Shown piece by piece: positions 7,780 through 64,000 of a stretch of 64,000 nucleotides of DNA. The DNA comes from Octopus vulgaris (taxonomy: Eukaryota). The stretch is taken from the NCBI GenBank assembly GCA_951406725.2, contig OX597820.1, positions 113,708,001 through 113,772,000 on the forward strand. The letters are read 5' to 3'. The notes beneath the pieces were generated by a model. It was not told the DNA's origin and did no database searches. It saw only the letters and a list, made by a program, of their open reading frames with translations. Within the stretch, counting starts at the first letter, position 1. Each line of letters opens with the position of its first letter. The translations under genes and the position numbers were made by a program.

Positions 7780-7824
7780 ACTCAAGTTGTAAAAGACAGG
7801 GGCAGACAACTGTTACATTATAGT
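7780..7824 (+). CDS. Internal micro-exon, 45 nt, phase 0/0 (TQVVKDRGRQLLHYS)
   Basis: tttttctttctctacag acceptor; gtaagt donor; only frame 0 is open. Confidence 0.7.
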
Positions 7825-10046: not shown

Positions 10047-10432
10047 TTTTTAAATAACAAACTGTGTCCCAAGCGTATCCGGGTGTTCTATTTAATCTGA
10101 ACATTTTGATAAAAGGGGTGGGACAATGTTATTGTAACTGTTAATGATGTCGTTATTGCTTTCGTTGTTCTTGTCGTGATTAACTGCCATTGTAAATATT
10201 CATGTTGTTATTGTCAGTGAAGCTATTTCAAGAGATTTCTTTACATATTTCGTTTCTTTATAGGGGAATTTCGAAGGAAGCTCCAAGAAACAAAAAGGAA
10301 ACGACTCGCAGACAATACCGGAGATACAAGTAAACAAAATTTTATCATTTCTTTGAAACAGAATTGGTATTTTCTTTGGACTATGTTGTTATTGTTGTAA
10401 TATATATATAGGCACAGGCGTGGCAATGTGAT

Positions 10433-13967: not shown

Positions 13968-16051
13968 ATAGTAAATATATATATGTGTGTGTGTGTGTAT
14001 ATATATACATATATATATAGTGTGTATATAAGCATGTGTTGTGTGTGTGTGTGTGTGTGGAGTATCTCATAATATCTATTTCGCCTCTTTGTACTCTAGG
14101 TTCAGATACTGTAGAAGCTAGCTTTATTTCCGTTCTTTGGAATCATTACAAAATAAAATTCCAAAAAACAAAGTTCGTATATAAGGAATCGATAACAACA
14201 AATTACAAATATTTGCTAGATCTGCTTTCAAGCTCAGTTTCTGAAAAGTACGCATAAGTAATCGCGATTTCGTTTGACTATACTCCTGGAAAGCGATAAA
14301 ATGGACGGCCACAAGATTTTTGTGTTTGCGGCTGGAAATTTCAACGTTTCTGGCCAGCCGTAAATGCAATCGAAAGCGCGTCCCCTGAAGTGTATTGTCT
14401 GGTTTTAAGAGTTAAGGTGAAGGCATCAATATCATTGAAAATCAAGTAAATCATCGTCGTCGTCGTCGTCGTCGTCGTCTACTATAAAAATAAAAACAGA
14501 AGAAAATGATAAGCCCTTGCGACAAGTACGAAACTAACAATGACACCATTAGCAAGCAGGTTACATTATTCCAGCCTTGAACAATGAAGATCTGTCTTTA
14601 TCTTTGACAAGTCCCTTATAAAAATTCACTTATTCCGCTGAGAGAGAGGTTATCCGAAAAGTCTATCTCACGAGACGTACAGTCCTGAAGCCCTCTGCTT
14701 TCGAAATCTATTTGTCTGGGATGCTTATGGGATGAGAAGTAGAGCTGAGGATAAGTTAAGAATATTAGAGTGCCCTTTTCTCCTTTTTTTAAGTTCACTC
14801 TCGAGAAATTTTCAGTCATGCAAAAGCAGCGGTCACTGCTATGATTTATAGTTTCTCTTCGTGACACATGCATTGCAAAGGGCATGCACTTCCGTAGGGC
14901 ATTTATCCACATTTTAACCCTTTTTTGCAACAACCCACCAGCAACTACTGCTGCTCCTATTATGCAAACTCCCTCTTTTAAAGTGATCTGAATTAAAACT
15001 GTCGATCAGAATGCCATGTTATATTCCAAATACCAACTAATAACGGCAAAGAAATTATAAGTTCTTCATTATTTTTTTAAATGATTGAAAGAGATGTAGT
15101 GCAGTTTAAGAAAGATATAGAAACAAAACGTTAAAGTGATCTAAACTAAAACTATCAAAGTTTCGTAGTAAATTGTTCCAACAACAAGCTTAATAATGAC
15201 AACGCTGTTTTACTAATTTCTTCAGGGCTGTTCAGCAGAAATATCGTATCACCAGAAACAAAAGCTGCAACAAACGTAGAGAAGGTGGATCTCTTATCTT
15301 GGTTGCTTATTTTTCAAGCAAAATATATTAAAGATGATAAGTTTACTTTGTTAAGGTAATTTTTAAATTTCAAGAATTAAGAATGAATTAATATTTATGC
15401 AGCTCCTAAGTGCTTTAAACAGACGAATATAGTTCTAACAAAATAATACAAAAATAACAGACGAAAGTGAGATCATATAACAATAGAATAATAGATTAAT
15501 CACCTCTCAGTTCACAAGAGTCGTAAAATATGTCTTAGAAGCCTACGGAATCATATATTGAGCTTATATGGATGATGTAACTTCTGTTGTTGTAGATTAC
15601 GTCATAATGTTTTATTGAAATGATTCAATACTTATAATGTACTAGCAAGACCTGTGACAATTCCATAGTGTAAGTCAGCATATTTGAAAACATTGTTATT
15701 ATATTAAAAACAACCAAGGAATTTTTTTAATTCTTTTCAAATCCTGTCATTTAATCAAAACTGTACTTTCAAATATGATCGAAATAAACTCAGAAAGTAT
15801 TGTTTGTTTTCCTTCTTTTAATATGTTAGACACACATATGATGTGCTTCACTGCCTATCCCTATATCTTTTAATGCATTAATTTTAAAATCTTCATGAAA
15901 TTTATAAATCTTCGACATTGTTTCAATGTATTAAACATTGCGACTCTGCCTGCGACTTGAACACACAAATGCAGAATAATAAAGACCTCCTCCTCTTCCT
16001 CTCTCTTCTCTATCTATCTCTATCTCTCAGTCGATCTCTCTATCTCTCTTT

Positions 16052-17271: not shown

Positions 17272-18155
17272 CAGGGTGCGAGGAGTATTTGAGGACAGTT
17301 TCGGTATACAATAAAACAACTATTTTTCAGCATAAATATATATTTGAATAAACATTTGCTCCATTAGTCTTGCTAATGATTTTTAAAGCAAATTATTCTA
17401 TGAAACCGCCTTCAGTTTCGACGACTGCTTCAATGCGGGACAGAAACCGCTGGCATGCTGACACTATGTGGTCCTTATTCATTTCGGACATCACCTGGAC
17501 ATTGACGGCCTTCAGTGAAGCTTTGGTATTTTGAGGATGACGATTGGTCTCCCTTTCAACAGCGCTCCACACGTAGTAGTCCATGGGGTTCAAATCTGGC
17601 GAGTTTGGAGGCCCCATATTGGTTGTTACATAATCGTAAAAATTGTCTGACAACCATTCTTGGGTGACTGGGGCTTTGTGAGAAGGCACTGAGTCTTGCT
17701 GAAACACATATGGCTTTCCGTTGCATACTTCATCAATCCAGGGCTTGATAACAGTTTCCAGTACCTCAATGTATACAGCAGCATTAATTATTAAGACCCT
17801 GTGGAAAAAAGTGGGGAGGCATCACATGACCTTTGCTACTCACCACTCCAAAAACCATCACAGTTGCTGGAAATTTCGTGTGCATCACCTGTCATTTCTT
17901 CTGTTGGACTTTTGAACCTGGCCAAAGTATTTTTCGTCAGAGAAAATCCAAAGCATGCTTTGTTCATGAGGGTTTTTGCACTTTGCTAAGTAACCGTTTT
18001 GAACGGACGAGACGGTTTTCCTGTGTCTTTGCAGACACGAATTAGCCTTTCCTCATTGCATGGGATTTGTATCGAATGTCACGATGTACCACAGTTCTGA
18101 CTGTCCACTCTGACACCCGAAGTTCTTTAGTAATGGTCTTCATTGATCTTCTGGG
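17272..18155 (-). mobile_element. Degenerate maT-type (DD37D) Tc1/mariner transposon, 3' part
   Basis: ORF 17393-17707 FQQDSVPSH...PPNSPDLNPMDYYVW has 37 residues between the last two Asp; end is TA|CAGGGTG; upstream has stops and frameshifts. Confidence 0.85.
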
Positions 18156-19335
18156 GTTGGACCGCCTTTTGCAGTAATTAAAGCTTGAATTCTACGAGTT
18201 ATGGACTCATACAAAGTTTGAATTGTTTCCAAAGGAATGTTTGTCCATTCTTCAGGTAAAACAGTCTCCAGTTCTTGTAGTGATGATGGTGGAGGATATC
18301 GACTCCTTACTTGTTTTTCTTAAATGCACCATAAACATTGAAGACTGTGGTGGCCAAATAAGATGTTCAACTTCACTAGAATGTTCCTAGTGCCATTCAG
18401 TAACAACATTAACTGTGTGAATTGGTGTATCATCATCCTGAAAGATTGCCTTTCCCTCTGGAAACAGTTCCGCAACCATAGGATGAATTTGATCAGATAA
18501 AATGCTTAGTCTTGACTATTAATTCTGCCATGAAGAGAAACCATCGGGTTGGCGGATTTCCAAGATATAGCCCTCACCCCCAGATCATCACAGATCCTCC
18601 TCCATGCTTAACAGTTGGAAGAAGACAGTCTGGGTCAAATGCTTCTTTTGGCTATCTTCACACTCGGCCAGAGATCGGAAATAAAGTAAATGATGACTAG
18701 TCCGAGAAAATAACATTCTTCCACTGCTCGAGGGACTAATTCTGTAAGTTTTTACTCCAATCGAAACGCTTTGCAACATTTGATTTTGAAAGTAGTGGTT
18801 TTCTGATTGCAGCCCTCCCTTGATATCCGGCTCTGCACGGCTCCCGGCGAACAGTTTTTGTGGAAACTGGATTCTTGAGGTGGTCATTAAGCTCTGCAGT
18901 AATTTTGGGAGCCGTACTTTTGTGATCCTTCCTAACAATTCGCGTAAGAGTCCAACCTGAAAGTTTTGGTTTTCTTCCGGAGAATTGTTTCGAGGAGAAG
19001 GTTTTTCCCTCTTTCTCAAAGGCTGTCATTACTTTCGAGACAGGACTTCTTGATACACCAAATATTTCGGCTGTTTTCGTTACGCTAGCGCCTGCCATAC
19101 GAGCATCAACAATTTAACCTCTTTGAAAGTCCGATAGATCTGTCATTTTAATGGATTTTAATTACCTTTTTCTGATGATATCTGAAAAGAAACAGCAATT
19201 TTAGCAAAACATATTAAGCAAAAATAATAATAAATCAAAAAACATAAAAATAAACAAGATTTTGACGGGTTTATATATATTTCGAAATTATGATGCTATG
19301 ATGCTAGGTGTTCCCATTATTTTGTCCAACCCCTG
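18156..19335 (-). mobile_element. Degenerate Tc1-like transposon, 3' end missing
   Basis: HTH region MAGASVTKTAEIFGVSRS, GRKPKL, RKPLLS, WKNVIFSD, IFQDDDTPIH, WPPQS, C-terminal AKGGPTP; end TA|CAGGGGTTGGACAAAATAATGGGAACACC. Confidence 0.88.
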
Positions 19336-20390: not shown

Positions 20391-20450
20391 AGCGACACTG
20401 GTGAAGACAATCTAATCGCGCTCCAGGCTTCTGTTACTGATCCCTCTGAC
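20391..20450 (+). CDS. Internal exon, 60 nt, phase 0/0 (SDTGEDNLIALQASVTDPSD)
   Basis: tttcgttacag acceptor; gtaagt donor; only frame 0 is open. Confidence 0.7.
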
Positions 20451-32496: not shown

Positions 32497-32978
32497 ATAT
32501 ATATATACATAAGAATTAAGATATAAACTCATATTAGGCAACTAATTACTTATACAGTAATAAATTCGACTTAAAATGCGCACACATATATATTAATACA
32601 TGTCGACACATATGAATATCTTTTTTTTATATTTATGAAATATAAATACAAATATAAATATACATAAAACTACATTTAATAAAAACCCATGTGGGATACA
32701 TATGGAAGGAAGTGTGAGAAAAAGGAAACTGGTAAAAAATTTTTGTACTAAAATTCAGGGCGGTCAAGAGTTTCAATTAAAAGATCCACAGAGCTCGATG
32801 TGTTTTTTTAATATATAAATGGTATATAAAGTATATAAGGTATATAATACAGTCCAAGGAAGTCCACTTTCTACGCCCGTTTCTTGCTAGAAATATTAAA
32901 AGAAAATCTTACAAACCATGCGCACGATGTCCACTCCATCAGGAAAGGGTTGTCTCGGGTTCGACCCACGTAAGAAAG

Positions 32979-39225: not shown

Positions 39226-39291
39226 CTACAAGATTGTTCCGTTCATGACGAACCGAGGACTAATTCAGACCTGCCAACTAATATCGCTTGT
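39226..39291 (+). CDS. Internal exon, 66 nt, phase 0/0 (LQDCSVHDEPRTNSDLPTNIAC)
   Basis: ttttttcttcatttccag acceptor; gtaagt donor; frame 0 open. Confidence 0.75.
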
Positions 39292-46640: not shown

Positions 46641-47381
46641 TTTTTACAGTAGTGCTTGGAAGGAACGTGCGTAGCGTGTGATCGTCGCATTGAACATGAC
46701 AGAGAAAGTTGTCATGGCGATAACTGCTCAGAGGCCTACGCAAAGTTGCAGAAAGTGTATGGAGAGGAGTGCATGAGCCGCACACAAGTAATATGAGTAG
46801 TTCAGACGTTTCCAAGATGGCCGAAAAAATGTCGATAGTGACAAGCGCTGTGGAAGACCCGCAACCTGCAAAACTAAGAAAAACATCGCAGATGTGCGTG
46901 CAGATTTAAGGGAAAATCCTCGAATCACCATCCGTGAGTTATCAGAGGATGCGCAGATTAGTCCATTATCACTGAAGATTTGGGTATGAGATACGTGTCT
47001 GCCAATTTTGTGCCAAAACTGCTTTCAGCTGACCAAAAAGACACTCGGGTTTCAGTTGCACAAGAGCTCCTGGATTGTATCGAGAACAATGAAAACTTTT
47101 TGAAAGCTTTGCGTAGGCCTCTGAGCAGGTATGTCCAAGCTTTTGGCAAAATTTGATGCAGATTCTCTGCTCAACTTTCTCTGTCATGTTCACTGCGACG
47201 ATCACGTGCTACACTCGTTCCTTCCAAGCACTGCAGTAAACAGCGGAAGTGAACTAGAACATTAAACCTTTGTGCGCATGCACAGCAGTGTTCAAGATCA
47301 ATCTGTGCCCAGCAGCTTTATTCTGTGTGCTTTAACTTCGTTACTATGACAACAGTCCGGATAATTATTGATCAGACCACA
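46641..47381. mobile_element. Mariner relic: + strand transposase N-terminus followed by an inverted copy of the element 5' end
   Basis: + strand peptides MTEKV, CSEAYAKLQKVYGEECMSRTQV, RCGRP, RITIRELSED, DLGMRYVSANFVPKLL; minus strand MTEKVEQRICIKFCQK and a TIR-like gtggtctgatcaataattatccggactg. Confidence 0.8.
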
Positions 47382-47658: not shown

Positions 47659-47987
47659 AGTGAAGTGTGTGTGAGAGGAGGGTGTTTGATAAATTGCCCT
47701 GACAATGTTAAGGTTACTTATTTTCAGAAATAACGCCGACGAGAATTTATCAAATGTTAGCGCGAATAGAACGGGAGTTCAGAGAAGCAGTCGGTGGGAT
47801 GGCGGTGAGGGGGACTGAAGCGATAAAAACTTAACTCTGGCTCACTTGCATCTCACATTATATTCTCGGTCACAAATATGTATGTATGTAGGTAGGTAGA
47901 CAGGTATGTCTGTATGTGCGCATATGTATGTAGATATGTATGTTTATGTGTATATACGTGTATTTCCATATATGTCTCTGTTTTTAG

Positions 47988-49931: not shown

Positions 49932-49979
49932 TCAACGAACGATGACGTTCGGGTCGTCCCTTTAAGGCACAAGAAACAG
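49932..49979 (+). CDS. Exon start / 48-nt phase-0 exon (STNDDVRVVPLRHKKQ) just upstream of the giant ORF
   Basis: Strong acceptor ttttttctttctccag at 49931; only frame 0 open; possible donor CAG|gtgacg at 49980, otherwise frame 0 stops at TGA 50091. Confidence 0.65.
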
Positions 49980-50008
49980 GTGACGGCAGAAAATCTTAAA
50001 GGTAAAAT

Positions 50009-53000
50009 ATGGATAGGGGAGAAAGTAGGGCGGCTCCTAGCCGCATTGAGGTCGGTCGAACAGCTAGCATGGAGAATACCAGAGATGATGTGATAAGGTT
50101 ACCGTTTATTGGCACCTTCCCACGAACTAGGAGGGATAAAATAGATGAGAGTAAAATGCCATCTACCCAGTCTCCGACTAGTTATAGACAGAAAATAAGG
50201 AGTGGTATATTTGGAAACAGAACATCACGATTTCTCGAAGAAGTTAAACCTAGCGAACAAAGGGGGACTATATTTGGTACGCTACCGCGGCGCAAAGTCA
50301 CAGAAACTGATACATATCCGGAACACCATAGCTCATTGCCCCGATCACATTCAGACATGAAAACAATCAAGAGTTTGGTTAAAGAAACTAGTTTTCCTGT
50401 GTATGGTGGTGGTCGAAATACCTTTGAAAGAACAATTATAAACACAGATTACCGAAGATCTCCTTTCGCTGTTCGATCGCCTCGTTCCAATAGTAACAGT
50501 CGTGCCAGTATGCATGACTATGCACTCAGTAGCGACGAGGGTTCTTGGTCGGCTGCGGATAGTGGTCATATTGATGATATGGAAAGTTCTGTGCTTAGTA
50601 CGGCATCCTCGCAAAATGCTGGCGATTCCAATACAGACGAACAGAAAAAGAAGAAGAAAAACATCAAAAGTTTAGGTAAAAGAATCAAAAAGGGTCTCTA
50701 TTCCCTTTTTCACAAACATGAAAAACGAGACAGAGACAGCGGTGTAGACGATATCCGACAAACTGATGAAGAAAGCAACAGAACATACTGTAGCACCGAT
50801 TCCGAATTTGATCGCGACAGCGTGAGCAATTTCTCTTACACGTCCAGCGTCAGTCGAAACAATTACGGAAGCAACGCGACTCTGTCACAAACTGGCCCCA
50901 ATGAAGATCGACTCAGTATGGTATCGTCATCAACGTTGTCAAATTATGGAAACGATAGACATAAAGCCGGTATGCGTAGGGTGAGAAGTATGGGTTTCCA
51001 AGATAAGAAAAGTACTTTAGGCCACTTTGCTAATGCTACTCCTTATGATAAACCTGATGGAGATGTTACTTCGGTGTCTGCTCAAAATCAACGGAAGACA
51101 TATTCGCATCAACTAGGCATGTCTCCCGGAAGTTCAACTGATATCGTGGACAGAAACGTGCAAGATCGCACAGCTTCGGCAAACACGAATATACATGAAG
51201 ATAGTAATATGAGACGCAGCTTAACATCGGAGAAAATTAATAAAGACTCGAAGGTGACCAACAGAACATCATTACCATTTATGGGAATTAATTTGCATTC
51301 TAAGAAGAGCCAAGAATTCTCAGTATCCTCGCAGAAAACACATATTGATCAAACAGCTTCTGTGGAAGACCGTACTGTTTTGTTAAACACAGATACACTT
51401 GTTTGTGAAGATAATAGCATGAGACGCAGCTTAACATCAGAGAAAATTAATAAAGACTCGAAGGCGACAAACAGAACATCATTACCATTTATGGGAATTA
51501 ATTTGCATTCTAAGAAGAGTCAAGAATTCTCAACATCGTCGCAAAAAACACATCTTGATCAAACAGCTTCCACTTCGGAAGACGTTTCTGCTTCTAAATC
51601 AAAGAATACCAGTAAAGTCAGCCGTGGGTTGTTTGGTTTCTCCTTTCCCGGCAGATCTAATAAAAGTTCGTCTTCTCAGCTCAAATCCACAACCAAAAAT
51701 AGTAAAGGCAACACAGATGGGGAGGATACATCCTACAAAACTTCACAAGAACGGAAATCTTTGGAAGAGAAACACGGTAGAATGTTTCTTCCAATCTTGT
51801 CTGGACCAAAAGCCAGCAAGAACAGGTCGGTTGTTGTAGTAGCAAGCAGTATAGTTGGCATGTCACCATTAGGACAATTGTCCGACTCCAGTTTTTCAAA
51901 CATCGAAGATCTGAAGACCGACCATTTGAACGATAACATTCCGTCGTATACGGAACCGGACAAAATTAAGGATTCTCAACAGCATAAAACGATTGCAAAC
52001 TTCTTAGAAAGGAAAGATCCTAGAACACAAGATCTCGCCCCTGCAAGGAACAATAACCAAGTCTATCCTTCGGCAAAACAGTCTGGTACTGAAAACTCTG
52101 TAAAGTTGACAACGTCTAAGCGTGAATTTAACAAACATTCGAACTCAGAAAGTCACCAGTTGGGATCCAATCTCTTACGCAACGAAAGAACTGCTTCCCC
52201 GAAATCTGTTTCTATGCACCAACGTCATGTTCCAGAAGCAGCTGCCATTCGTGTTGAAAGCCAGATGAGTAAAGAGAAGACAAACCTCGGTAACGAAAGC
52301 GTCATTCTGTCACAAGTTACCCAAGTCCGAAATGAAACCAAAAACGAAGAGAAAATATCTTGGCACACTAAAGAAACGAGTGGGAAAACAAATGGAGAGG
52401 ATCTTAGCATTAAAGAGGATAAAACAAGAACTGTGTTTCAATATCGTACTGAAACCAATTACGATGATGATGATGACGACGACGATGACAATGAGTTCTT
52501 TGATATCGAAGAACCGACAGATAAGGCACCAACAAGTTCTGATGGAGATAACACAGATTTGGAGTTCTATGATAGCGTAGAACTCGCTCCAGACACCCTT
52601 GGACAAATAAAAGAAGACAGTAGTGGAGAAAATAAAGCCGCCTTTGGTTATTCTTCAACTACACAAATTAAAACTTCTTTTGAGCATTTAAGTCAGGACA
52701 GAATCCATCGCCGATCGGAAGACAACATTTCGAGTCGTTCTGAAATAAGCAAAAGCAATGTTTCACCACATCGATTACATAATGTAGCAAACTCATCTGC
52801 TCCAGCGACTCAAGCTTTTAAGACTCCTTACATAACAGACAATGGTGCCGAATGGATCAAGAGAACAGATTACAGCCAAGTTCTCACAAAAACCGATGAT
52901 GTCGAAGAAATAAAAAGAAGATCCGATATTATTGTGCAAAAATCGAAGAGTATCGACGAAAGCAGTTCTGGCGAAAGGCCAACACTAGATTTACCAAATA

Positions 53001-56000
53001 GAGTAAATCAAATACAGAGAACAGCAAACCAATCGAAAGCTGTTGAAGAATTAAGTAAATTCAATGAAATCAGTAGTTCAAGCAGAAAGACTGTTTTGTC
53101 AACCTCCCCCTCGATATCAGCAGCAAGAAAAACTGTTCCTTCTAGTAATATTAGCAAGTCATTGGAATTATTCCAGAAAGAAATTACCAAAGTTGGAAAA
53201 CAGCCTATGAAAATAGAAGAAAAGACACAAATCTCAACTAGGGAGGAGAAGGGAGTTTGTGTGAGTAAACATGGGAGAGATAGTGCTGAAGAACCGCCTC
53301 CAGAAAGAGATAAACATGGATTTGGTGTTAAGCCACTGAATGACAATAATGATTCTCTTAGGATTTTTAGCGGTGCAGACGATATTGCCAACGCTAAGTA
53401 CAGAGGAATCAGACAAACCGAAGAATCCATCAAACATATTTCAAGATCTAACAGCGAGAACATTCCAAAGAAAGAAGTTGAAGAAGCGGCCAGAATAAAT
53501 GATGTTCCCACTCTGAGAAGTGATAACATCAAAACTGAGAACCAATATGTTGGTCGGGAAATTGATGGTGAGCATAGCCCTGGGGATCAATCGATAGAAA
53601 ATGTCAGGAAAGATGACATTGAGGAAAATAAGAGCAAAAATATTATTAAATCAGATGAAAATCAATCCAGAAGGATCAATAACGATAAATCCAAAATCAA
53701 AGTTGATTCTGAAACCGCCTTATCGTCAACAGTCAGGAAATCAGATTTGGAATCGACTGCAAATGATACTAAAAGCATATATTCTTCAAAGCATCCTAAA
53801 AGGGAAAAAAGCGAAAAGTCTTGGAAGAAATCTCCTAAAGAGAAGACTGATTCTCACACAGCACATACAGATGGTAGTGCACAAAAGGAAATAGCCAAAA
53901 GCCAGCTTCCTCATCCTGAGAAAACAAAATCTACTAGACGCGAAAATATTGCACAAAAATTCGATAGGCCTGAAGATAAAAATGATGCAAATCTTGGTAT
54001 TGGAGCTACTGAAAATAGGGAACCAATTCAGAAAGAAAAACCCGCTAAATCTGTGAGTGAAATGACTCAAATTTTCGATGCGAGTGGCAAACATTTGGGT
54101 TATGTTAGCATGGAAGAGATTCTACGACTTCTTAGTGAAAAGCTGAATCTTCCAAGTGCTGTCAACTTGGATCAAAATACCAGTAAAGATGCCGCTACGT
54201 CTGTGACCAGTAGCTTACATAGAAAGATGGAAGGGGAACCAGCAGAAAAAAGTTTTAATGCAAAACATAGTTCGTCGTATGAGTCGAAAGATAAATTCGA
54301 CAATGAACCCCATAGACATACCAGCAGTAAAGCTGATATGCCAAAGGAAAAAGAGTTTCGTGATCACTCGAAGATTGATAGTGGAGTTGACAACAAACAC
54401 AGCAAAAAGGTTAGCCCTAAACATAGCAGTGAATCTAGCCCTGAGTCCAGCAGTGAGTCCAGTCCTGAAATCAGCAGTGAGTACAGCACTGAAGTGAGAA
54501 CTGAATCCAGCTCTGAATCTAGTGCTCAGGCCAGTATAATAGATAAAAACGAACATCTCACTGTCTTAAGTGAGCCAACAAGTAATGATACAAGTGCTGA
54601 ACACAGCGTTGAGTCTAGTCCCGAACTGAGCAGCGAGTGCAGTCCAGAACTGAGCAGTGAGTGCAGTCCAGAACTCAGCAGTGACTCCAGTTGTGCAGAA
54701 CTCAGTGGAGAATCCAGTAGCCCTGACGTCAACAGCATCCCTAGTAGTGAGGCCAACAGTGAAACAGAATGCGACCGAGAATTCAGTTTTGAACATAGCC
54801 GTGTATTGAATGAGGAAGATCAAATTAAAGATGGTGACACCAGTTCAGATTTCAAGCTCAACTTTGTTTCTGAGAATAAATCCAGTGATGATTCTAAGAT
54901 TGACATCATAAGAATCATAGATAATGAAAATAGTGTAGATGTTCCAAATAAGGAAGACAGGACAAGCTGGTCCGAACGTGCTCCCAGCGATTCAGATATT
55001 GCTGCTAAGAATGAGAGTCTTGATAATCAAGTTGAAATCGATCATGAAACCAATATTGAAATTGTGAACAGAGATTTAAGCGAGAAACAATTCAAGGATT
55101 CCGAAGAGACCCTTGATACTGCTCACAAAACTGATAAGGAATCCAAACTCCAAACCAAAATTGATGCAGCTGATAAACGTAAAGTGAATTTAAGCCCAAC
55201 TTCAACCGAAGAGAATTTAAATAACATGAGTGATTTAAAACATCATAGATCTGAAACACTTCAGGCAAGATCTACAGTTTCAGACGATGTTGGCGTTACG
55301 TCTAAGGAAGTTTTCACTGAATTTGGTCCAAAACAGAAACCAGACGACGTAAATATTGAACAAATTGTTTCTGAATTCGTTGACAGTAAACGTAAGTCAA
55401 GTGAGTATGATCTCAGAGCTTCCAATCAAAACAGCAGCGATGGAATTTTAGCTAAAACGAATGATGCCAAAAATAGCAAAAGCAGCGAAAATATTAAAGC
55501 CATTGAGATTTCCCGGAGCAAAAGTGAAAGTATTGAATGCAAAGAGGAGAAAGAAAACAAATACACGGAGCCAAACAAGCCAAAAGTAATCAGGAAATAC
55601 AGTAAAAGTTCAAAACATGTTGATATCGATCTTTTGGCAGACCAAATGAAGGAAGCAGATGCGAGCAACAAGACAGATAAACTGGAAGATTCTGATCATA
55701 TAGTTTCGGAACAAAATAAAGTAAAAGTTGACAAAGATGAGAAAAAGGAAGAAAAATCCCGGCCGCCGAAACAGAATCGCAAATCAGAACAGAAAAGAAA
55801 TAAGAAGAAAAATAATATAAATAAAACATCACGGAATAATGAAATCTTTAGTAGCGAGGATAACTCTGCTAAATCCAGTGGTGCTGATATTCCAGGTAAG
55901 ACATCGTCTGAAAGACCTAAAAGAAGTGCGGTAGAATCTTCTGAAAGTGACGGTTCCAACAGTTTGGCCAATTCTACGAGTAAAGTTAAACGTAAAGTAG

Positions 56001-59000
56001 ATTCGGACAACGAAAGAGATTATAAGAATAACATAACATCAGATAATTCTTTAAAAGAGCAATCTAGCGATAGCAGAAGTTTCGAAGGAATTTGCGATAG
56101 AAAGATTAAGCCACTTCCGGTTAAGGATGATGTTAAAAAGATAACAGGCCAGATTTCTCCGTCTGTAAACAATGAGCAAATTATGAATAAGAATAGCATA
56201 AAAGATGATTCTACTGTACTGAATGAAAAGGAAAGCAAAATTATGGTGATTAAAGGGCGAGATAAGATTAAATGTGACATCACATCATCATCAGATGATT
56301 CATCATCGTCTGCTAGTGTTGATAAGACAAAGCTTTCTAGGTCTGCAGCTGTTAATGTGAAAAAAAGGGTTTCGTTTGACTTGAAACCTGACATCAGCAA
56401 ACATCCAGAAGATACAAAAGATAATGAACGTGTTTTGGATACGAAAAGCAACTACAAGGAGAAGAAACCTAAACACAAGTCAAAGACGAAAACTAGCAAA
56501 AATATCGAAAGCAGTTCTGCAGTAATCAGTGAAACTAGGAGTAAAGTAAAGTCAGAAGACTCTTTATTAACAAAAGAGAAGAATGGAGAGGCTATTTGCA
56601 CTGAGGAATCAAATAACGCTCCATCAGATATTATCCTTGCCGAAAGTTCGAATAAAGAAACGGAGGCAATTGATGGGTTAAAATTCTTCGAAAGACATCA
56701 GGCCGACAACGAGGTGACGACATCCGTCAAAAAAGAGAAAGGAACCACACCCTTTAAAACTGAAGAGTCTAAAAAGTCGAGGAGTAGAAATATGACGGCT
56801 GGTGTAAAAATATCAGAAATCCAGAAAGCGTCATATCTTTCCAGTAAATTCGGGTCGATTCATAACGAAAGCAAAGAAGACAAACAGTTCAATTTGCCAC
56901 ATTCTGGAAGTCAAATAAAGGGGGAAATGCGTGAGGGATTAGGTGAATCAAATTTTAAACAAACACACGACCAAACAAACGACACAGGGAACGAAACAAA
57001 AGAGAAGGAACTAGAAATCGAAAATTTGAACGTCAAAGATCAGAATTATGCCAAAGATATCACCAAAGAAACGAAACTGGGAACCGATACCAATTTGAAA
57101 GAAAACTGGGGGATTTCGAAAATGCAAAACGAAAATTTCGAAAATACATCTTGCCAAAAGATTAAGCAAAGTACTGTTGATGTTAGTGAGAAAGAACTTG
57201 ATCAGGTAAGAGTGTATGAGACTATGTCAAACGGGACTGTCGCTGAAGTAAGAGATGCAGGAAAAGATGCTGTTAAAATAGACTCTGTCAAAGACGAAGA
57301 GTCAATAAGTAAAGAGTTCAAAGAAAACAGCTTGTCAGAAAAGGAAGAAGCCAATTTCATCTCTTCATCAAAATCGGCCGAATATACGGAAGTTAAAACC
57401 TCAAAGGAGGCAGTGGTGAAAGATGTTGAATTAGATGGAAATGAACAGAATGGCAGGGGTTTCTCGAATAGAGAGGGAGAAAGTTGTGCAGAAGCAGATA
57501 TTGACAAGCTGAAAGTTGAACAAAAAAAGGAGGATTCGGAATCTGAAGTTCGAATTGAGAAGAAGGAAGCTCGAATTATTGAAGATCTTTGTAAATACGC
57601 GGTGGAGGGTATAACAGAACCGCTGGAGGTTCTAAATACTCAGAATGTAGAAAACACGGAAATGTCGATGGAAATTGTCTATGATAACGTAGCTGATGTC
57701 TCCATCGAATCTCATGAAGTTGTACAAATGAATGTTGGCGAAAGTCTTACTGATCCTGTAAACTTACATTGCAACGATCCAATGGAGGACTTGACGACAT
57801 CTTTGAGTGACCAACTGGAAGATATTCGGACGACGCCAACAGAGGTTCTAGAGAACGAGTTTAAGGAGATCTCGATTTGTCCCGATGATGTTTGTTGTAA
57901 ACATTCAACTGAAATGTTTACTGATGTAAACAATGAACCAGAAGTCCTCCAAGATTCTGTATGCGTTCTGGAAGCAAACACCTTAGAAACACCAAAGGAA
58001 TCAATAACCGACCAAAACGAGAGATTAGCAAAATTAACAGAAATTACAGATTATGAGGTTATACATGTTGGCGGTGGTATGGAGCTTAGTGTATCAATAG
58101 AACAAGCAGATACAGTATGTGAGGAGAAAAGAAATATTTCCGATGAGACCAAAGATTCTGAAGAACCATTAAAATCTCCACAAGAACTTTATTCCACAGA
58201 ATCTACAGAGCCTCTACAATATGAAGAAGTCAGTAAACTTGTTACGGCGGTGACGAGAGCTCATTTCAAAGACTCGCCAAGTTATTTGATTGATTGTCTG
58301 AGCTGCTCAGATGACAATAAAGTAGAATATTGTACAGATTTGGTGGACTTGGAGAACATAGACCACGAAGAAAACATCATAGAGATCACCGTCGTTGAAC
58401 ATTCTAGAGTAGAGGGTATTCCGATTGAAATGTTTGATGTTGCATCAATAGACGAAATCATAAGCTTTGTGAAACTTGAGAATACGATCTCTGAAGATCC
58501 GATCCATGATTCAACCGAACCTGTAGACATTGTCAAAGAAGTTCTTGCAAACGCTTCACTAGAACCTGAACACGTGCTCTGTCAAAAGATTACTGAAACT
58601 CTACTGGAATCTATAAAAAGTCAACAGAAACTGGACTCTCAATCTTCTTCAGTTGCCAGTCGAGAAGATGACTCCAAGAGTTTCACTGGTGACAAAAGCC
58701 AAGTAACATCTGAAGAAAAATCTGAGAAAAATTACTCGCCCGTAGAGTCACAACAGTCACAGCGGACATCAAACGAATTAGAAGAACAGAGCGTAAAAGA
58801 TTCTAAAGAACTTACTGGTAAAGTTAATGACAAAAGCATGTCTCTTTGCCTTGAAAGTGAACAACGAGGGGTTGATTCGAAAATCACTACAGATAAAACT
58901 TCAAACAATTCAAGCTACCTATCACCGACAAATGTGAATGATTTTAATGAATCTGAAAAAGATAAGGAAACATTAAAAGATCAAATTAGTTCAGATATTG

Positions 59001-62000
59001 AAACATCTAAATATAAGGAGAAATTGATAAATGAAGATAGCAATGAATCACTGGAAACAACAAGTTGTCAGGCAGTTGTCAAGGAAAAATCGACATGTGA
59101 CAAAGATGGCGCTTTTAATGAGATTGATGATAAAGAATTAAAAACGAATAAAGATAACGATGCCAAATTGACTGTAGAAATTGTCGGAGCTGATAAAGAA
59201 CTAAGTAAAGCGGCAATAATTGAAGGAAAAAAAGAGAAAAAAGAAAAAGAAGAAAAAGCAAAAAGAGAAAAGAAAGAAATGAAAGAAAAAGAGAAACGAG
59301 AAAAGAAAGAAATGAAAGAAAAAGAAAAACAGGAAAAGAAAGAGAAGAAAGAAATGGAGAAAAGAGAAAAGCTAATGAAAAAAGAGAAGGAAAAGCAAGA
59401 AAAGATAGAGAGAAAGTTGAAGGAAAAAATGAAAAAAGAAGGAAAAGTCGAGGCAGAAATAATAGAGGAAAATAGGAAGGAAAATGAAGAAGCGAAGATT
59501 GAAGAGACAGAAATCAGAACAACTGACATTGTAGAAGACAGAAAGAATGAAGGAGTAGAAAATATAGATGGAATAAATCTGGAAAATAGGGAAGAAAAAA
59601 TAGAAAAGATGTCGGTCGTGAAGATGGAAGAATCTAGAAAAACAGAAGAAACTCCTGCTTTTGTCGAAAACAAAGAGAAGACAATTAAGGAAGGGGAATT
59701 GGGGAAAATGGCATCGATCTTTGAGAGAACGAATGAGAAGGACTTTCAGGAAAGACAAACTGAAGAAGTACTGGTCGTGGATGGAAAGGAGGGAAAGGAA
59801 AGGAAAGAAGAGAAAGTTGAGGTACTGTCAGTAGCAGAAAGAAAGAGAGAGAAAGGTAAAATAGAAGAAAAATCTAAAGACGTTTTGGTCGATAAAGGTA
59901 AAGAATTGAAGAAAGTTGAAGTCATCGAAGGAAATGAAGAAAATAAAATGAAAGAAAGAGAAAGTAAAGAGATTTCTGCGGTTGAAAGAAAGAGGGAGAA
60001 AAATGAAAAAGAAGAAAAGTACGAAGAAAAACAGGTCTTTGAAGAAAAGAAGGAAGAACTAAGAAATGAAGAAAAAACCGAAGAAGTGTTAATCGTTCGT
60101 GACGAGAAGAAAGTAGAGCTAGGAGACAAAATGGAAAGGATATCATCGGTCGCTGACGTAAAGGAGAAACAGGCGAATATAATGAAAGAAATGAAGATTG
60201 AAGATGAGGCTGAGGGAGAAGGTGAAGGTAAAGTAGACAGGGAACGGGAGAAAATGAGTGGAAATGAACTTGTAAATTTGGAAAAGGAATCAGAAGTTAT
60301 GGGGAATAAAGAGAGAAATAACAAGGAGGAGATAACTATGGATAAGAGAGAGAAGCATGATCAACAGCAGTTGTCACTTAAGGATCGTAATGAGGAGGAG
60401 GAAGAGGAGGAGTTTTACGACAGTGTGGACATATCACCACGGGAAAGTGCAAACGAACTCCCTGCTGAATTGCGTGAACAGAACGATAATCTCAAGCCTA
60501 ACGAGAGTTCAGTTAAAGCGCAGGATTTAGAATCGGTGACACCTCCTTCTTCAACTGAGTCACTGAAGGAATTGAAAAGTCCCTGTTTAGATAAAGATGG
60601 CGCTCTGAGCAACATTCAAGATAGTATTACTGCTGCTACTGTTGATGTCACTAAAGATATAGACATAGCAAAACAAGTGACGGAAACAGCAAGTAGTTCG
60701 TTACCGGATATTTCCGTGGCGTCATCTACTTCGGAAAATGACGGCTTCAAGGAACAAAGTACTAACAACAATAATATAGACGATAGCGAAACTATGTTAT
60801 CACAGCGTAACAGTAAACAAGACAGTAGTGGTTCAGATATTACTGATATAGCTCTAGCGAAGCAGGAAGAGGCTAAAGATAACGATATCACAAGCATCAG
60901 TAAAGAAGTAAGAGCTACAACAGCAACAACAACAGCAGCAACAAAAACAACAGTCACAACAACAGTAGCAAAAATCGATGGAACAGATCTTCAATCCAAT
61001 GAAACTGAAGAGACTATTGATACCTCAGATTCAACAAATATCTTGAACACTGGACAAAACAAATATGTACCTCCTCAGCGTGAAAGCTGTGAAGATATGT
61101 CGTTAGCAGATACTAGTGCTTCGAGCGGAAATGAGAAAATAAGCTATGAAAAACCAACAGAACATAAGATCTCTACAAACATGGAGGATGATGTTAAGGA
61201 AATTAGTTTTCCTGATAAAGTCGAAAACAACAGAGAAATTGTTTTGTTAGCTTCAGATAGTGAAGCTGAAATGACCGTCCCTGCTGAGAGTAGATCTGAA
61301 GAACAGTTGCAGAGTGCAGTTTGTGAAAACGCAAAACTAAACAATGACGAAATATTAGTACAACCCATTGTTGATGAATCGAAAGAAATTTCTCCCAGTA
61401 TTTCAACGACTGATGACACTAAAGATGAAGTTGTTGCATCGACACAAGCAAACAACGTGTCGTCTGATTTAGTCGAAAAAGGTATACCTCATACGACGAT
61501 TGAAAGTAACGAAGAAGAGGAGAAAACTCAAGCCACACCCACCAAAAGTGGTGTTCTTTATGCTGTTGATGCTCTAAAGAGAATGTTTGGCTTTTCTTCG
61601 AGTGAAGAACTTGAAACATGTGACAAGAATAAAGAATGTATAATCACAAGTGAAGCCAGTGACAACAGGCAGCAATTGGATGGCAAAAAGGACAGTGTGT
61701 GTCACGATGAGGATAATATTTCTGTAGAAGTCGCGAAAGGAATCAATGAACGGGATACACCAGAAAATAAGGATTCCAAAGACTCTGAAGTTGAATATTT
61801 TGACAAGAACGACGGAAGTGATAAAACTGATACATATTTAGAAGAACAAATATCACTTCAGCCAACGTCTATGGAAGATAAGAAAGAAGATATAAACAAA
61901 GCAAATAAAGACATTGAGATCGAATCTTCAAAAGAGGAAACCGGTGAAATGAAACACAGCGAGGATATTGTTAGTTCTGAAGGGAAAGATAGAATTATTC

Positions 62001-64000
62001 CTTGTGATGAAATAATACAGGTGTCGGAAGACGGAGATCATGCCAGCAGCGAAGACACAACAGATCAAGAAAGTAGCTCAGAATCTTCAAAATCGGTAGA
62101 AGAATCAAACAGTGAAATAAGTGAACCAGATTCTGCAGAAAGTTCAGGAATTATTGCTGCAGATTTAGAAGAACTGCCTCCGTTTTCTCCTCAACAAACA
62201 TCAGAGGAGAGAAATCTTGAAGATAGCGACGAAAAAGTCTTCAATGAGGAAGACCAGAAAGACACATCTCATGAAGAGTCAAAAGAATTTATAACCACTG
62301 AAGAGGGGGAAACAGAGCTCGAATTGTCGCCAGTTATTTCTAAGATTGATAACTTAGAAGATGGCTGCATCGAAAACACGGTCGAAATTACAGTCGTTAC
62401 AGATGAAGATTTGTCCGGTGACTTGTTGCCGGAATCAGATATTCTCAAAAATGAAGAAGATGCAAGGGCTCAGTCAGTGGACACTGATGTTGACGCAGAA
62501 TTTATTGTGACATCTTCTGGGTCCTCAGATATTGTAACACCAGAAGAGAATCTTGAATCTAAAATTAAAAGAAAGCCACCAGTTCCACTACCAAGAACAA
62601 CTTCCAAGTCAGAAGCAAAGGATTCTAACAAGGAATCAGAATCATCTGAAGAAATCGAAGATTTAATAGACACGGAATCAATGAATGATTATACGGAAGA
62701 TGGACAAACTTCAGTAGAAAGTAAAAGTAAAAAACCAGTTCCTTTACCAAGAAGTGGTGTTAAAGCGGCTGAAACGGTAAAAGAATCACCTGAAACTGAC
62801 GAATCTATAGAGGAACAGTTCAGAGATCTTTCGAGCAGATTTAACATGTTGCCACCAGAAATGGGTGAGAAACTAAATTTCAAAAAGAAACCTCCAAAGT
62901 TACCGCCAAAATCTAAACTTAGTGGTGAACCAAATAGCACCGAAGAAATTAATTCTTGCGATGAGGAATCTGAAAATAATGATTCTGAAGAAATTAAAGA
63001 TATCAAAAGCAGATTAAGTATGTTGCCAGCAGAAATGGGTTTCAAACTTAATTTTAAGAAGAAAACTCCACCGCCACCACCATCGAAACTTGCAACAAAA
63101 GAAGATAAGGCAGGTGAAATACCTGAAGCTGAAAGTGACGCTCATAATGAGGAAGAGAAGTTAATTGAAAATATAGAGATAAAGGAACAGGACAATAAAA
63201 TCGAACCAATATGTTCTGGCACTGAAGACGCTGATGATGCACAAATGGATCTAAAACGAAGAATGAGTATGCTATCGGCAGAAATGGGAGTTGAAATTAA
63301 TTTGAGGAAGAAAAGCCCTCCAAGTCCAGCACCAAAGGTAAAAAGGAGCGATAATTCAATTAACGCGGAAGAAAATAAATTAATTGAAGGCGACAAAGGC
63401 TCTGAAAGTATTGACGGGTTGGAGCAAGTTTCTGATAACATCAGTAATACGGACGATTCAGACGAACAATCAATGGATTTAAAAAGTCGGCTAAATAAAT
63501 TATCTAACGAGATGGGAACTCAAGTAACTCTGAAGAAATCAGCCCCGGTACCGCCACCTAAATTTACCAAAGACAAAACGAAATTACAATCGGAAGATGA
63601 TGAAGAAGAAATGGATTTGAAGTCACGAATGAATAAACTTTCTTCAGAGATGGGTACTGAAATTAATTTAAAGAAAACCAAAAAACCCCCAGTGCCTTTA
63701 CCAAAGACTGCAGCGGCAAAGATCAATAGTGTGACGGAGGTAGAGTCAGAAGATCCAGAGGAAAGTGGGGAGACCTCTTGTACATTCGTTATTTCTACAA
63801 GTATTAATGACGTAGAATGTGATGAATCAGGTAGTTTTACGTTTGTAATCAACAGTGATGCTACGGAAGATCAAACCGTATTTGCAGTCAGCGATAGTTC
63901 TGGAACAAAATCTGAAACAACTACAGACGGTGACGTAAAAACAGCCGATAGCAGCGCAAATAAAGCAGAAGGTGATGATGAGAACTCTAACAGTTTTACT
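50009..64000 (+). CDS. Giant uninterrupted ORF (at least 13992 nt, 4664 aa, 3' incomplete); acidic/Ser/Lys-rich, predicted disordered scaffold protein
   Basis: ATG at 50009 in strong context (aaaatATGG) with in-frame TAA at 50003. Reads MDRGESRAAPSRIEVG...; the same frame reads KAEGDDENSNSFT at 63962-64000. The ORF track lists no stop-terminated ORF in this frame and my spot translations are open. No SINEs or dinucleotide microsatellites in 14 kb. Confidence 0.93.
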   Translation, partial: MDRGESRAAPSRIEVGRTASMENTRDDVIRLPFIGTFPRTRRDKIDESKMPSTQSPTSYRQKIRSGIFGNRTSRFLEEVKPSEQRGTIFGTLPRRKVTETDTYPEHHSSLPRSHSDMKTIKSLVKETSFPVYGGGRNTFERTIINTDYRRSPFAVRSPRSNSNSRASMHDYALSSDEGSWSAADSGHIDDMESSVLSTASSQNAGDSNTDEQKKKKKNIKSLGKRIKKGLYSLFHKHEKRDRDSGVDDIRQTDEESNRTYCSTDSEFDRDSVSNFSYTSSVSRNNYGSNATLSQTGPNEDRLSMVSSSTLSNYGNDRHKAGMRRVRSMGFQDKKSTLGHFANATPYDKPDGDVTSVSAQNQRKTYSHQLGMSPGSSTDIVDRNVQDRTASANTNIHEDSNMRRSLTSEKINKDSKVTNRTSLPFMGINLHSKKSQEFSVSSQKTHIDQTASVEDRTVLLNTDTLVCEDNSMRRSLTSEKINKDSKATNRTSLPFMGINLHSKKSQEFSTSSQKTHLDQTASTSEDVSASKSKNTSKVSRGLFGFSFPGRSNKSSSSQLKSTTKNSKGNTDGEDTSYKTSQERKSLEEKHGRMFLPILSGPKASKNRSVVVVASSIVGMSPLGQLSDSSFSNIEDLKTDHLNDNIPSYTEPDKIKDSQQHKTIANFLERKDPRTQDLAPARNNNQVYPSAKQSGTENSVKLTTSKREFNKHSNSESHQLGSNLLRNERTASPKSVSMHQRHVPEAAAIRVESQMSKEKTNLGNESVILSQVTQVRNETKNEEKISWHTKETSGKTNGEDLSIKEDKTRTVFQYRTETNYDDDDDDDDDNEFFDIEEPTDKAPTSSDGDNTDLEFYDSVELAPDTLGQIKEDSSGENKAAFGYSSTTQIKTSFEHLSQDRIHRRSEDNISSRSEISKSNVSPHRLHNVANSSAPATQAFKTPYITDNGAEWIKRTDYSQVLTKTDDVEEIKRRSDIIVQKSKSIDESSSGERPTLDLPNRVNQIQRTANQSKAVEELSKFNEISSSSRKTVLSTSPSISAARKTVPSSNISKSLELFQKEITKVGKQPMKIEEKTQISTREEKGVCVSKHGRDSAEEPPPERDKHGFGVKPLNDNNDSLRIFSGADDIANAKYRGIRQTEESIKHISRSNSENIPKKEVEEAARINDVPTLRSDNIKTENQYVGREIDGEHSPGDQSIENVRKDDIEENKSKNIIKSDENQSRRINNDKSKIKVDSETALSSTVRKSDLESTANDTKSIYSSKHPKREKSEKSWKKSPKEKTDSHTAHTDGSAQKEIAKSQLPHPEKTKSTRRENIAQKFDRPEDKNDANLGIGATENREPIQKEKPAKSVSEMTQIFDASGKHLGYVSMEEILRLLSEKLNLPSAVNLDQNTSKDAATSVTSSLHRKMEGEPAEKSFNAKHSSSYESKDKFDNEPHRHTSSKADMPKEKEFRDHSKIDSGVDNKHSKKVSPKHSSESSPESSSESSPEISSEYSTEVRTESSSESSAQASIIDKNEHLTVLSEPTSNDTSAEHSVESSPELSSECSPELSSECSPELSSDSSCAELSGESSSPDVNSIPSSEANSETECDREFSFEHSRVLNEEDQIKDGDTSSDFKLNFVSENKSSDDSKIDIIRIIDNENSVDVPNKEDRTSWSERAPSDSDIAAKNESLDNQVEIDHETNIEIVNRDLSEKQFKDSEETLDTAHKTDKESKLQTKIDAADKRKVNLSPTSTEENLNNMSDLKHHRSETLQARSTVSDDVGVTSKEVFTEFGPKQKPDDVNIEQIVSEFVDSKRKSSEYDLRASNQNSSDGILAKTNDAKNSKSSENIKAIEISRSKSESIECKEEKENKYTEPNKPKVIRKYSKSSKHVDIDLLADQMKEADASNKTDKLEDSDHIVSEQNKVKVDKDEKKEEKSRPPKQNRKSEQKRNKKKNNINKTSRNNEIFSSEDNSAKSSGADIPGKTSSERPKRSAVESSESDGSNSLANSTSKVKRKVDSDNERDYKNNITSDNSLKEQSSDSRSFEGICDRKIKPLPVKDDVKKITGQISPSVNNEQIMNKNSIKDDSTVLNEKESKIMVIKGRDKIKCDITSSSDDSSSSASVDKTKLSRSAAVNVKKRVSFDLKPDISKHPEDTKDNERVLDTKSNYKEKKPKHKSKTKTSKNIESSSAVISETRSKVKSEDSLLTKEKNGEAICTEESNNAPSDIILAESSNKETEAIDGLKFFERHQADNEVTTSVKKEKGTTPFKTEESKKSRSRNMTAGVKISEIQKASYLSSKFGSIHNESKEDKQFNLPHSGSQIKGEMREGLGESNFKQTHDQTNDTGNETKEKELEIENLNVKDQNYAKDITKETKLGTDTNLKENWGISKMQNENFENTSCQKIKQSTVDVSEKELDQVRVYETMSNGTVAEVRDAGKDAVKIDSVKDEESISKEFKENSLSEKEEANFISSSKSAEYTEVKTSKEAVVKDVELDGNEQNGRGFSNREGESCAEADIDKLKVEQKKEDSESEVRIEKKEARIIEDLCKYAVEGITEPLEVLNTQNVENTEMSMEIVYDNVADVSIESHEVVQMNVGESLTDPVNLHCNDPMEDLTTSLSDQLEDIRTTPTEVLENEFKEISICPDDVCCKHSTEMFTDVNNEPEVLQDSVCVLEANTLETPKESITDQNERLAKLTEITDYEVIHVGGGMELSVSIEQADTVCEEKRNISDETKDSEEPLKSPQELYSTESTEPLQYEEVSKLVTAVTRAHFKDSPSYLIDCLSCSDDNKVEYCTDLVDLENIDHEENIIEITVVEHSRVEGIPIEMFDVASIDEIISFVKLENTISEDPIHDSTEPVDIVKEVLANASLEPEHVLCQKITETLLESIKSQQKLDSQSSSVASREDDSKSFTGDKSQVTSEEKSEKNYSPVESQQSQRTSNELEEQSVKDSKELTGKVNDKSMSLCLESEQRGVDSKITTDKTSNNSSYLSPTNVNDFNESEKDKETLKDQISSDIETSKYKEKLINEDSNESLETTSCQAVVKEKSTCDKDGAFNEIDDKELKTNKDNDAKLTVEIVGADKELSKAAIIEGKKEKKEKEEKAKREKKEMKEKEKREKKEMKEKEKQEKKEKKEMEKREKLMKKEKEKQEKIERKLKEKMKKEGKVEAEIIEENRKENEEAKIEETEIRTTDIVEDRKNEGVENIDGINLENREEKIEKMSVVKMEESRKTEETPAFVENKEKTIKEGELGKMASIFERTNEKDFQERQTEEVLVVDGKEGKERKEEKVEVLSVAERKREKGKIEEKSKDVLVDKGKELKKVEVIEGNEENKMKERESKEISAVERKREKNEKEEKYEEKQVFEEKKEELRNEEKTEEVLIVRDEKKVELGDKMERISSVADVKEKQANIMKEMKIEDEAEGEGEGKVDREREKMSGNELVNLEKESEVMGNKERNNKEEITMDKREKHDQQQLSLKDRNEEEEEEEFYDSVDISPRESANELPAELREQNDNLKPNESSVKAQDLESVTPPSSTESLKELKSPCLDKDGALSNIQDSITAATVDVTKDIDIAKQVTETASSSLPDISVASSTSENDGFKEQSTNNNNIDDSETMLSQRNSKQDSSGSDITDIALAKQEEAKDNDITSISKEVRATTATTTAATKTTVTTTVAKIDGTDLQSNETEETIDTSDSTNILNTGQNKYVPPQRESCEDMSLADTSASSGNEKISYEKPTEHKISTNMEDDVKEISFPDKVENNREIVLLASDSEAEMTVPAESRSEEQLQSAVCENAKLNNDEILVQPIVDESKEISPSISTTDDTKDEVVASTQANNVSSDLVEKGIPHTTIESNEEEEKTQATPTKSGVLYAVDALKRMFGFSSSEELETCDKNKECIITSEASDNRQQLDGKKDSVCHDEDNISVEVAKGINERDTPENKDSKDSEVEYFDKNDGSDKTDTYLEEQISLQPTSMEDKKEDINKANKDIEIESSKEETGEMKHSEDIVSSEGKDRIIPCDEIIQVSEDGDHASSEDTTDQESSSESSKSVEESNSEISEPDSAESSGIIAADLEELPPFSPQQTSEERNLEDSDEKVFNEEDQKDTSHEESKEFITTEEGETELELSPVISKIDNLEDGCIENTVEITVVTDEDLSGDLLPESDILKNEEDARAQSVDTDVDAEFIVTSSGSSDIVTPEENLESKIKRKPPVPLPRTTSKSEAKDSNKESESSEEIEDLIDTESMNDYTEDGQTSVESKSKKPVPLPRSGVKAAETVKESPETDESIEEQFRDLSSRFNMLPPEMGEKLNFKKKPPKLPPKSKLSGEPNSTEEINSCDEESENNDSEEIKDIKSRLSMLPAEMGFKLNFKKKTPPPPPSKLATKEDKAGEIPEAESDAHNEEEKLIENIEIKEQDNKIEPICSGTEDADDAQMDLKRRMSMLSAEMGVEINLRKKSPPSPAPKVKRSDNSINAEENKLIEGDKGSESIDGLEQVSDNISNTDDSDEQSMDLKSRLNKLSNEMGTQVTLKKSAPVPPPKFTKDKTKLQSEDDEEEMDLKSRMNKLSSEMGTEINLKKTKKPPVPLPKTAAAKINSVTEVESEDPEESGETSCTFVISTSINDVECDESGSFTFVINSDATEDQTVFAVSDSSGTKSETTTDGDVKTADSSANKAEGDDENSNSFT
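51160..51570 (+). repeat. In-frame 210-nt (70-aa) tandem duplication inside the giant ORF
   Basis: gagacgcagcttaacatc at 51211 and 51421; peptide MRRSLTSEKINKDSKxTNRTSLPFMGINLHSKKSQEFS occurs twice. Confidence 0.92.
62825..63706 (+). repeat. Five protein-level repeats D(L/I)xxR(L/M/F)xxLxxEMGxxxx(L/F)(K/R)K plus a Pro-rich tail
   Basis: Units start at 62825, 62999, 63248, 63476 and 63614. Confidence 0.9.

Follow-up and report, generated by a model that had tools for sequence, protein, structure and literature searches.

FFAT-like motifs as candidate VAP-docking sites in a giant, predicted-disordered protein of Octopus vulgaris

Introduction

FFAT motifs (a pair of phenylalanines within an acidic tract) bind VAP proteins of the endoplasmic reticulum (ER) in two steps, the acidic tract meeting the basic surface of the MSP domain before the core engages (PMC9213790, PMC3261905). 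Serine is found at position 5 of the core in the VAP partners AKAP220, ACBD4 and ACBD5 (PMC3261905; PMC9213790), of which ACBD4 and ACBD5 carry a D-S-hydrophobic-E ending (PMC9213790), and the AKAP220 core EFFDSFD gives moderate ER targeting in yeast, better with Ala and none with Glu at position 5 (PMC3261905). Phosphorylation of this position is reported to abolish VAP binding, and a single chain may hold two FFATs, as in the chlamydial protein IncV, where they lie 24 residues apart (PMC9213790). Here we describe four FFAT-like motifs in a giant protein encoded in a stretch of Octopus vulgaris DNA (GenBank assembly GCA_951406725.2, contig OX597820.1, positions 113,708,001 to 113,772,000 of the forward strand), the whole 64,000 nucleotides of which we call the window. 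Our analysis suggests that the motifs are probably docking sites of moderate-to-weak quality, by which a giant predicted-disordered scaffold would be tied to the ER via the VAP family.

Results

The window is animal DNA, microsatellite-rich and of low G+C, in which one frame is open without a stop from 50006 to 64000 (4,665 codons). Residues are numbered from 50006, the first methionine being residue 2, and the ATG at 50009 stands in a strong context (A at -3, G at +4). The open reading frame (ORF) and its motifs are as follows.

50009..64000, + strand: giant ORF with no stop and an open 3' end; counted from its ATG, it spans 4,664 codons within the window
52463..52513, + strand: motif 1, nine Asp and an Asn followed by the core EFFDIEE (52493-52513, residue 830); FFAT score 2
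52538..52582, + strand: motif 2, a leader followed by the core EFYDSVE (52562-52582, residue 853); FFAT score 1.5; contains YDxV
60392..60430, + strand: motif 3, six Glu followed by the core EFYDSVD (60410-60430, residue 3469); FFAT score 1, the best; contains YDxV
61793..61813, + strand: motif 4, EYFDKND (residue 3930); weak, FFAT score 2.5, with Lys at position 5

Motifs 1 to 3 with their acidic leaders had been picked out by an earlier reading of the letters (hereafter the sequence-only reading), and all three lie in the frame of the ORF; motif 4 had been overlooked. Motif 2 sits 23 residues after motif 1, and the near-identical cores of motifs 2 and 3 are indeed far apart, separated by 7,848 nucleotides, in a protein that is as poor in aromatic residues as that reading had said (F 2.0%, Y 1.2%, W 0.13%). 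The protein is otherwise acidic and rich in Ser, Glu and Lys, and is predicted to be largely disordered, with FoldIndex below 0 in 93% of 51-residue windows. A Pfam search of it gave no family match, and a hydropathy scan of the part seen gave no transmembrane segment or hydrophobic signal, the highest 19-residue value being 1.42. Its orthologue is Octopus bimaculoides LOC106867396 (XP_052825376.1, annotated 'uncharacterized, partial'), 5,744 residues long and with the same start methionine. Because the two share 92% identity across the part that lies in the window, gaps making up 0.5%, we take the ORF to be a real coding exon of more than 14 kb.

Scoring used a reconstructed FFAT matrix, made from the phospho-FFAT matrix (PMC7705450 Table EV4) by setting D/E as ideal at position 4 and dropping the last sub-score. 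Checked by hand, it matched 20 of 20 conventional scores, picked out of some 95 rows in Table EV2 and three in Table EV1 of that paper, and PMC3261905's own scoring table may rate the present motifs differently. The cut-off for an FFAT-like site is at most two suboptimal elements (score 2 or better, or below 3 in later use; criteria of PMC3261905). Such matrix scoring had been proposed by the sequence-only reading, and its three motifs prove to be the protein's three best sites (1, 1.5 and 2), all within the published cut-offs; in the 4,665 residues no other conventional site but motif 4 scores 3 or better. Phospho-type sites number four, with scores of 2 to 3. The acidic tract is full at motifs 1 and 3 and partial at motif 2 (penalty 0.5), and motif 1 combines the best leader with the worst position 5. 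By their letters, motifs 2 and 3 belong to the Ser5 class of AKAP220, ACBD4 and ACBD5. All four sites fall in predicted disorder (FoldIndex -0.32 to -0.61), and a low-confidence single-sequence model of residues 766-915 has no helix or strand at motifs 1 and 2.

The core of these motifs is strongly over-represented. The protein contains five F/Y-F/Y pairs, as expected, and four of the five read E-aromatic-aromatic-D, a pattern (E[FY][FY]D) expected only 0.04-0.08 times; none of 2000 shuffles per null reached four copies, the three nulls being one that preserves dipeptides and two local ones, including a 30-residue local one. When the EFYDSV pair is set aside, the two cores that remain are matched in 3-5 of 2000 shuffles, and the looser pattern [DE]-aromatic-aromatic-[DE] reaches four in 0-1 of 2,000. 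On the whole matrix chance should yield about one site (0.8-1.1) that scores 2 or better, and the 1/1.5/2 pattern of scores arises in 0.5-1.1% of 2,000 shuffles, depending on the null. The FFAT excess is therefore modest on the full matrix and strong on the core. EFYDSV is also one of at least six exact 6-mers that recur at a distance of more than 300 residues, and 2 of 1000 shuffles contain such a distant repeat that includes two aromatics. Between the two copies of EFYDSV, five of six third codon positions differ and one whole codon in six is shared, and their flanks are alike at 25/60 and 21/60 bases. These differing codons and flanks rule out a recent DNA duplication, and the pair would fit either an old duplication or selection that acts on the peptide.

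Conservation is less informative. All four cores are identical at seven of seven positions in O. bimaculoides (where motif 4 scores 3), and an excess over the flanks cannot be demonstrated with this species because background identity is already 92%, with 58% of all 7-mers identical. The O. bimaculoides record adds a further site beyond the window, QFRDADE (residues 5411-5417), with the canonical D-A-x-E ending and a score of 2. The only distant relative found, Sepia pharaonis CAE1306168.1 (1,203 residues), begins about 545 residues before the first unit of a repeat array that it shares with the octopus protein (described below), and is apparently short of the region of motifs 1 to 3. It carries a phospho-type site, EYFSSDE (score 1), and two conventional FFAT-like sites at 2, in acidic surroundings. 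EYFSSDE lies about 270 residues before the first Sepia repeat, and octopus motif 4 about 340 before its first unit; the Sepia sites give a hint, and only that, of a shared feature.

The C-terminal part of the window protein had been described by the sequence-only reading as a WH2-like/PxxP array, which together with the FFATs was to form a very long flexible tether from the ER to the cytoskeleton. Two features define this part.

62579..62752, + strand: two PVPLPR motifs (PxPxPR), of the CIN85/CD2AP SH3-ligand pattern
62801-62935, 62975-63109, 63224-63358, 63452-63586 and 63590-63724, + strand: five repeat units, delimited by alignment

The C-terminal array is real and is shared with cuttlefish. 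PxPxPR is a CIN85/CD2AP SH3-ligand pattern (PMC13532356), and PxPxP[RK] is observed five times (two exact PxPxPR and three PxPxPK) against about 0.1 expected. In each repeat unit, of some 30 residues, a predicted short helix ends in E-M-G and is followed by one hydrophobic residue, a cluster of basic residues and a tail rich in proline; the helix was predicted in both units modelled, the last two. Invariant across the five octopus units are a D, an R, an L, E-M-G, a K and two P, with no LKKT core. Six such units are present in Sepia CAE1306168.1 (residues 540-908), which aligns to the octopus protein by BLAST over the repeat array only (30% identity, 380 residues). The repeat has been kept between octopus and cuttlefish though the flanks barely align, no relative was found outside these two genera, and the array is the best-conserved feature seen. 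Directly after it (window ~63780-63860), short strand-like motifs of aromatic and hydrophobic residues (F-T/V-F-T/V-I/L) stand between acidic stretches, and these recur in O. bimaculoides (4658 and 4711) and Sepia (940 and 975).

A WH2 domain is an amphipathic helix followed by an LKKT/V-type motif. The WH2-like label finds no backing in Pfam, where the whole protein gave no WH2 match and the five units matched neither WH2 nor thymosin up to E 10, or in PDB searches, which returned no actin-binding chain. Exact LKKT occurs in one of the five octopus units. A loosely WH2-like pattern of spacing, fitted to these very units (a hydrophobic residue, another one four on, L-K-K six on), is seen in three of the five and in none of the six Sepia units. 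In two of five octopus and four of six cuttlefish units (6/11 in all) a proline sits within the would-be WH2 helix, three positions ahead of the conserved Met. The array fits SH3 ligands better than WH2. The tether model, in which FFATs would hold the ER and WH2-like repeats actin, draws on the three octopus units that fit the loose spacing and on the helices predicted in the last two, and JMY, a protein with a predicted FFAT, is counted among the cytoskeletal partners of VAP-A (PMC9213790). However, besides the failed family and structure searches and the invariant residues that lack an LKKT core, no capping-protein motif is present, the Sepia units do not fit the pattern and mostly carry a proline in the helix region, and the FFAT sites are scattered along the chain and not gathered at one end. 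Nor does the layout require a very long tether: some 800 residues separate motif 3 from the first unit, and some 340 separate motif 4 from it. The tether model has nothing beyond plausibility in its favour. An ER-to-actin tether, resting on two putative ends, is speculative and we regard it as improbable.

A second alternative turns on the tyrosine of the EFYDSV copies, which could be pY-D-x-V sites for an Nck-type SH2 adaptor and, with the PxxP array, make the protein an adaptor and actin-signalling scaffold whose FFAT match is incidental or secondary. The Nck SH2 consensus is pYDXV(S/A/T/Y)X(D/E), and PERK uses YDSV (PMC3937095); the YDSV within EFYDSV matches this SH2 core. A further site of this type lies between the FFAT-like motifs.

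57680..57691, + strand: third occurrence of YDxV, here YDNV, not in an FFAT context and also present in O. bimaculoides

YDxV thus occurs three times in the window protein (0.2-0.3 expected under the nulls; reached in 3-5 of 2000 shuffles) and four times in O. bimaculoides, and an SH2 site would account for the Val shared at FFAT position 6, which the FFAT matrix leaves free, as well as sitting well with the excess of PxPxP[RK]. Yet without the EFYDSV pair the YDxV count is ordinary (383-539 of 2000 shuffles; 80-203 for O. bimaculoides), none of the three sites has the residues of the extended consensus at +4 and +6 together, and no YDxV is found in the Sepia fragment seen. A hydrophobic position 6 after Ser5 occurs in known VAP partners too, and EFFD and EYFD are left unexplained. 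We consider this account unlikely.

Several points weigh against docking to VAP, and some of them favour a plainer account in which the motifs are functionless by-products of a long acidic low-complexity protein. Chance alone would supply about one of the sites at score 2 or better, three or more such sites arise in 4-11% of 2,000 shuffles, according to the null, and the patterns tested were settled on once the motifs had been seen, which somewhat overstates their significance. Position 5 of motifs 1 to 4 is Ile, Ser, Ser and Lys, never the preferred Ala or Cys, because of which we call the motifs FFAT-like rather than canonical FFAT; that the Ile of motif 1 is non-canonical had been remarked before. 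Three identical 7-mer cores are to be expected about 19% of the time at a background of 92%, and the conservation is no higher than that background can account for. The FFAT-like sites of Sepia were not aligned to those of octopus by BLAST, and residues 2-1,101 found no relative among 7,998 candidates (proteins of 605-1,925 residues). A cytosolic location is assumed, both ends of the full protein being uncertain. Against the by-product account stand the four E[FY][FY]D cores, never reached in the 6,000 shuffles taken together, dipeptide-preserving and 30-residue local ones included, and the identical 6-mer written in different codons; we think it quite unlikely. The FFAT-like assignment of the sequence-only reading stands, as far as sequence goes, on its scores, on predicted disorder and on the Ser5 precedents.

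The weakest alternative, which we hold to be very improbable, makes the motifs LIR/AIM sites (LC3-interacting region/Atg8-interacting motif) for Atg8-family proteins, with an acidic tract and then aromatic-x-x-[LIV] (F-F-D-I, Y-D-S-V): it would explain the odd Ile of motif 1, and such a core is present in motifs 1 to 3, of which motifs 1 and 3 are kept when an acidic leader is required, but these cores are not enriched (2 against 1.39 expected when filtered, 14 against 12.7 unfiltered), motif 4 lacks one, and the invariant E and D that flank the two aromatics are unaccounted for.

AKAPs bind RII through an amphipathic helix, and a pattern for it is found once in the window protein against 1.75 expected and twice in O. 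bimaculoides against 2.48, so an AKAP reading was rejected. A single RVxF-type motif of the kind used for PP1 docking, KKRVSF (56360-56377), is kept in O. bimaculoides and is borderline against shuffles, and SxIP and RRxS patterns are not enriched in the window protein. Basic stretches could be nuclear signals, and one that is basic and apparently amphipathic near the N-terminus (residues 214-238, window ~50640-50720) could either bind acidic membranes or be such a signal. The ORF also contains internal duplications at 51209-51621 and 54413-54691, comprising a 210-nucleotide unit in about two copies and Ser/Glu/Pro-rich units of 24 nucleotides.

Searches for relatives returned little beyond the two cephalopod records. 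A whole-protein search found one relative among 1,423 candidates, the O. bimaculoides protein, which is the sole full-length relative found; a search with the repeat region found two among 1.84 billion representatives, and one with a repeat profile found one among 3,637 (size range 80-2,000 residues). PDB sequence searches gave chance matches or none. In a protein atlas the N-terminal part gave only leads below 0.9, among them a DUF4592 cluster (24% of members) and a CARMIL C-terminal cluster (0.76), and the giant protein has no capping-protein motif that would back them; the repeats gave no usable match. The one metagenome locus found, a 14-residue match in DNA of 69% G+C, was dismissed as chance. 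A full-text literature search, in which gene identifiers were not queried and most subscription papers lay outside coverage, found nothing on this protein's motifs.

Upstream of the ORF a crude splice-site scan proposes small exons on the plus strand, one of which begins not far before the ATG.

49932..50008, + strand: candidate exon start, with a strong splice acceptor 77 nucleotides before the ATG; its open frame differs from that of the giant ORF

This exon start is among the two top-scoring candidates. The small candidates are at 1842-1907, 7780-7824, 10264-10329, 15226-15355, 20391-20450, 32891-32969, 39226-39291, 47728-47804 and 49932-50001, several of them only 45-66 nucleotides long. 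They may belong to a separate gene, to a spliced 5' leader or to the front of the giant gene: in-frame chaining of them into the giant ORF was not achieved, and Pfam searches with 15 exon-frame readings gave nothing significant, with one weak match at E 0.16. Two non-repetitive stretches of higher G+C in the intronic DNA (~17300-19250 and 46650-47320) look by eye like decayed transposon remnants.

Discussion

We lean towards VAP binding by at least one of the FFAT-like sites. By analogy with known FFATs, the acidic leader would steer the chain to the basic MSP face, where the core would then lock in. Motifs 1 and 2 may bind one VAP dimer jointly, a possibility we infer because their 23-residue spacing resembles the 24 of IncV, and joint binding could make up for the unfavourable Ile5 of motif 1. 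At motifs 2 and 3, where position 5 is Ser, phosphorylation could turn VAP binding off. Tied to ER VAP proteins at two or three points, with a C-terminal array that would recruit SH3 adaptors (actin binding being no more than a possibility), the giant protein might be better pictured as a multivalent ER-held scaffold than as a tether of measured length.

The FFAT-like motifs provide a first functional handle on a protein of more than 5,700 residues that has no family match and has so far been found only in octopus and cuttlefish, and the handle is cheap to test, with four 19-residue peptides and one small domain. If binding holds, a giant multi-FFAT scaffold will join the known VAP clients, an expected sort of result. 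Two further ideas would carry greater weight if true. One is that the conserved C-terminal repeat is a new actin- or adaptor-binding module. The other is that the overlap of FFAT and YDxV is a phosphotyrosine switch, something raised as a possibility for FFAT motifs with Tyr at position 3 (PMC3261905). EFYDSV would then be a two-way switch built twice, held by VAP at the ER when unphosphorylated and, once its tyrosine is phosphorylated, leaving VAP for an Nck-type SH2 domain, so that a coleoid-specific scaffold would shuttle between ER anchoring and actin signalling, its output end being the new cephalopod repeat with its E-M-G helix and SH3 ligand; this we regard as a long shot.

How the protein compares with described systems can be set out briefly. 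Its two relatives, O. bimaculoides LOC106867396 and Sepia CAE1306168.1, carry neither name nor function. JMY resembles it in concept, with an FFAT-like motif that has Tyr3 and Ser5, a cytoskeletal tie and proline-rich stretches, but is far shorter and has recognised WH2 domains, whereas for the octopus protein neither a WH2 family match nor homology was found. Two FFAT-like motifs per chain are a feature of PTPIP51, ORP3, SNX2 and chlamydial IncV as well (PMC9213790). These have a membrane anchor or a lipid-binding domain that defines the second organelle, and none was found in the octopus protein. Closest are AKAP220 (AKAP11), ACBD4 and ACBD5, which have the same acidic leader and E-aromatic-aromatic-D-S-hydrophobic-acid core, AKAP220 also having two FFAT-like motifs close together. 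Homology to these three was not found, and the octopus protein differs from them in having at least four sites over 3,100 residues and in lacking a membrane anchor, as far as it was seen. Precedents exist for FFAT-like motifs, for tandem FFATs and, in JMY, for a VAP partner at the cytoskeleton, and judged by its motifs the octopus protein is likely to be a new multi-FFAT VAP client of a sort already known.

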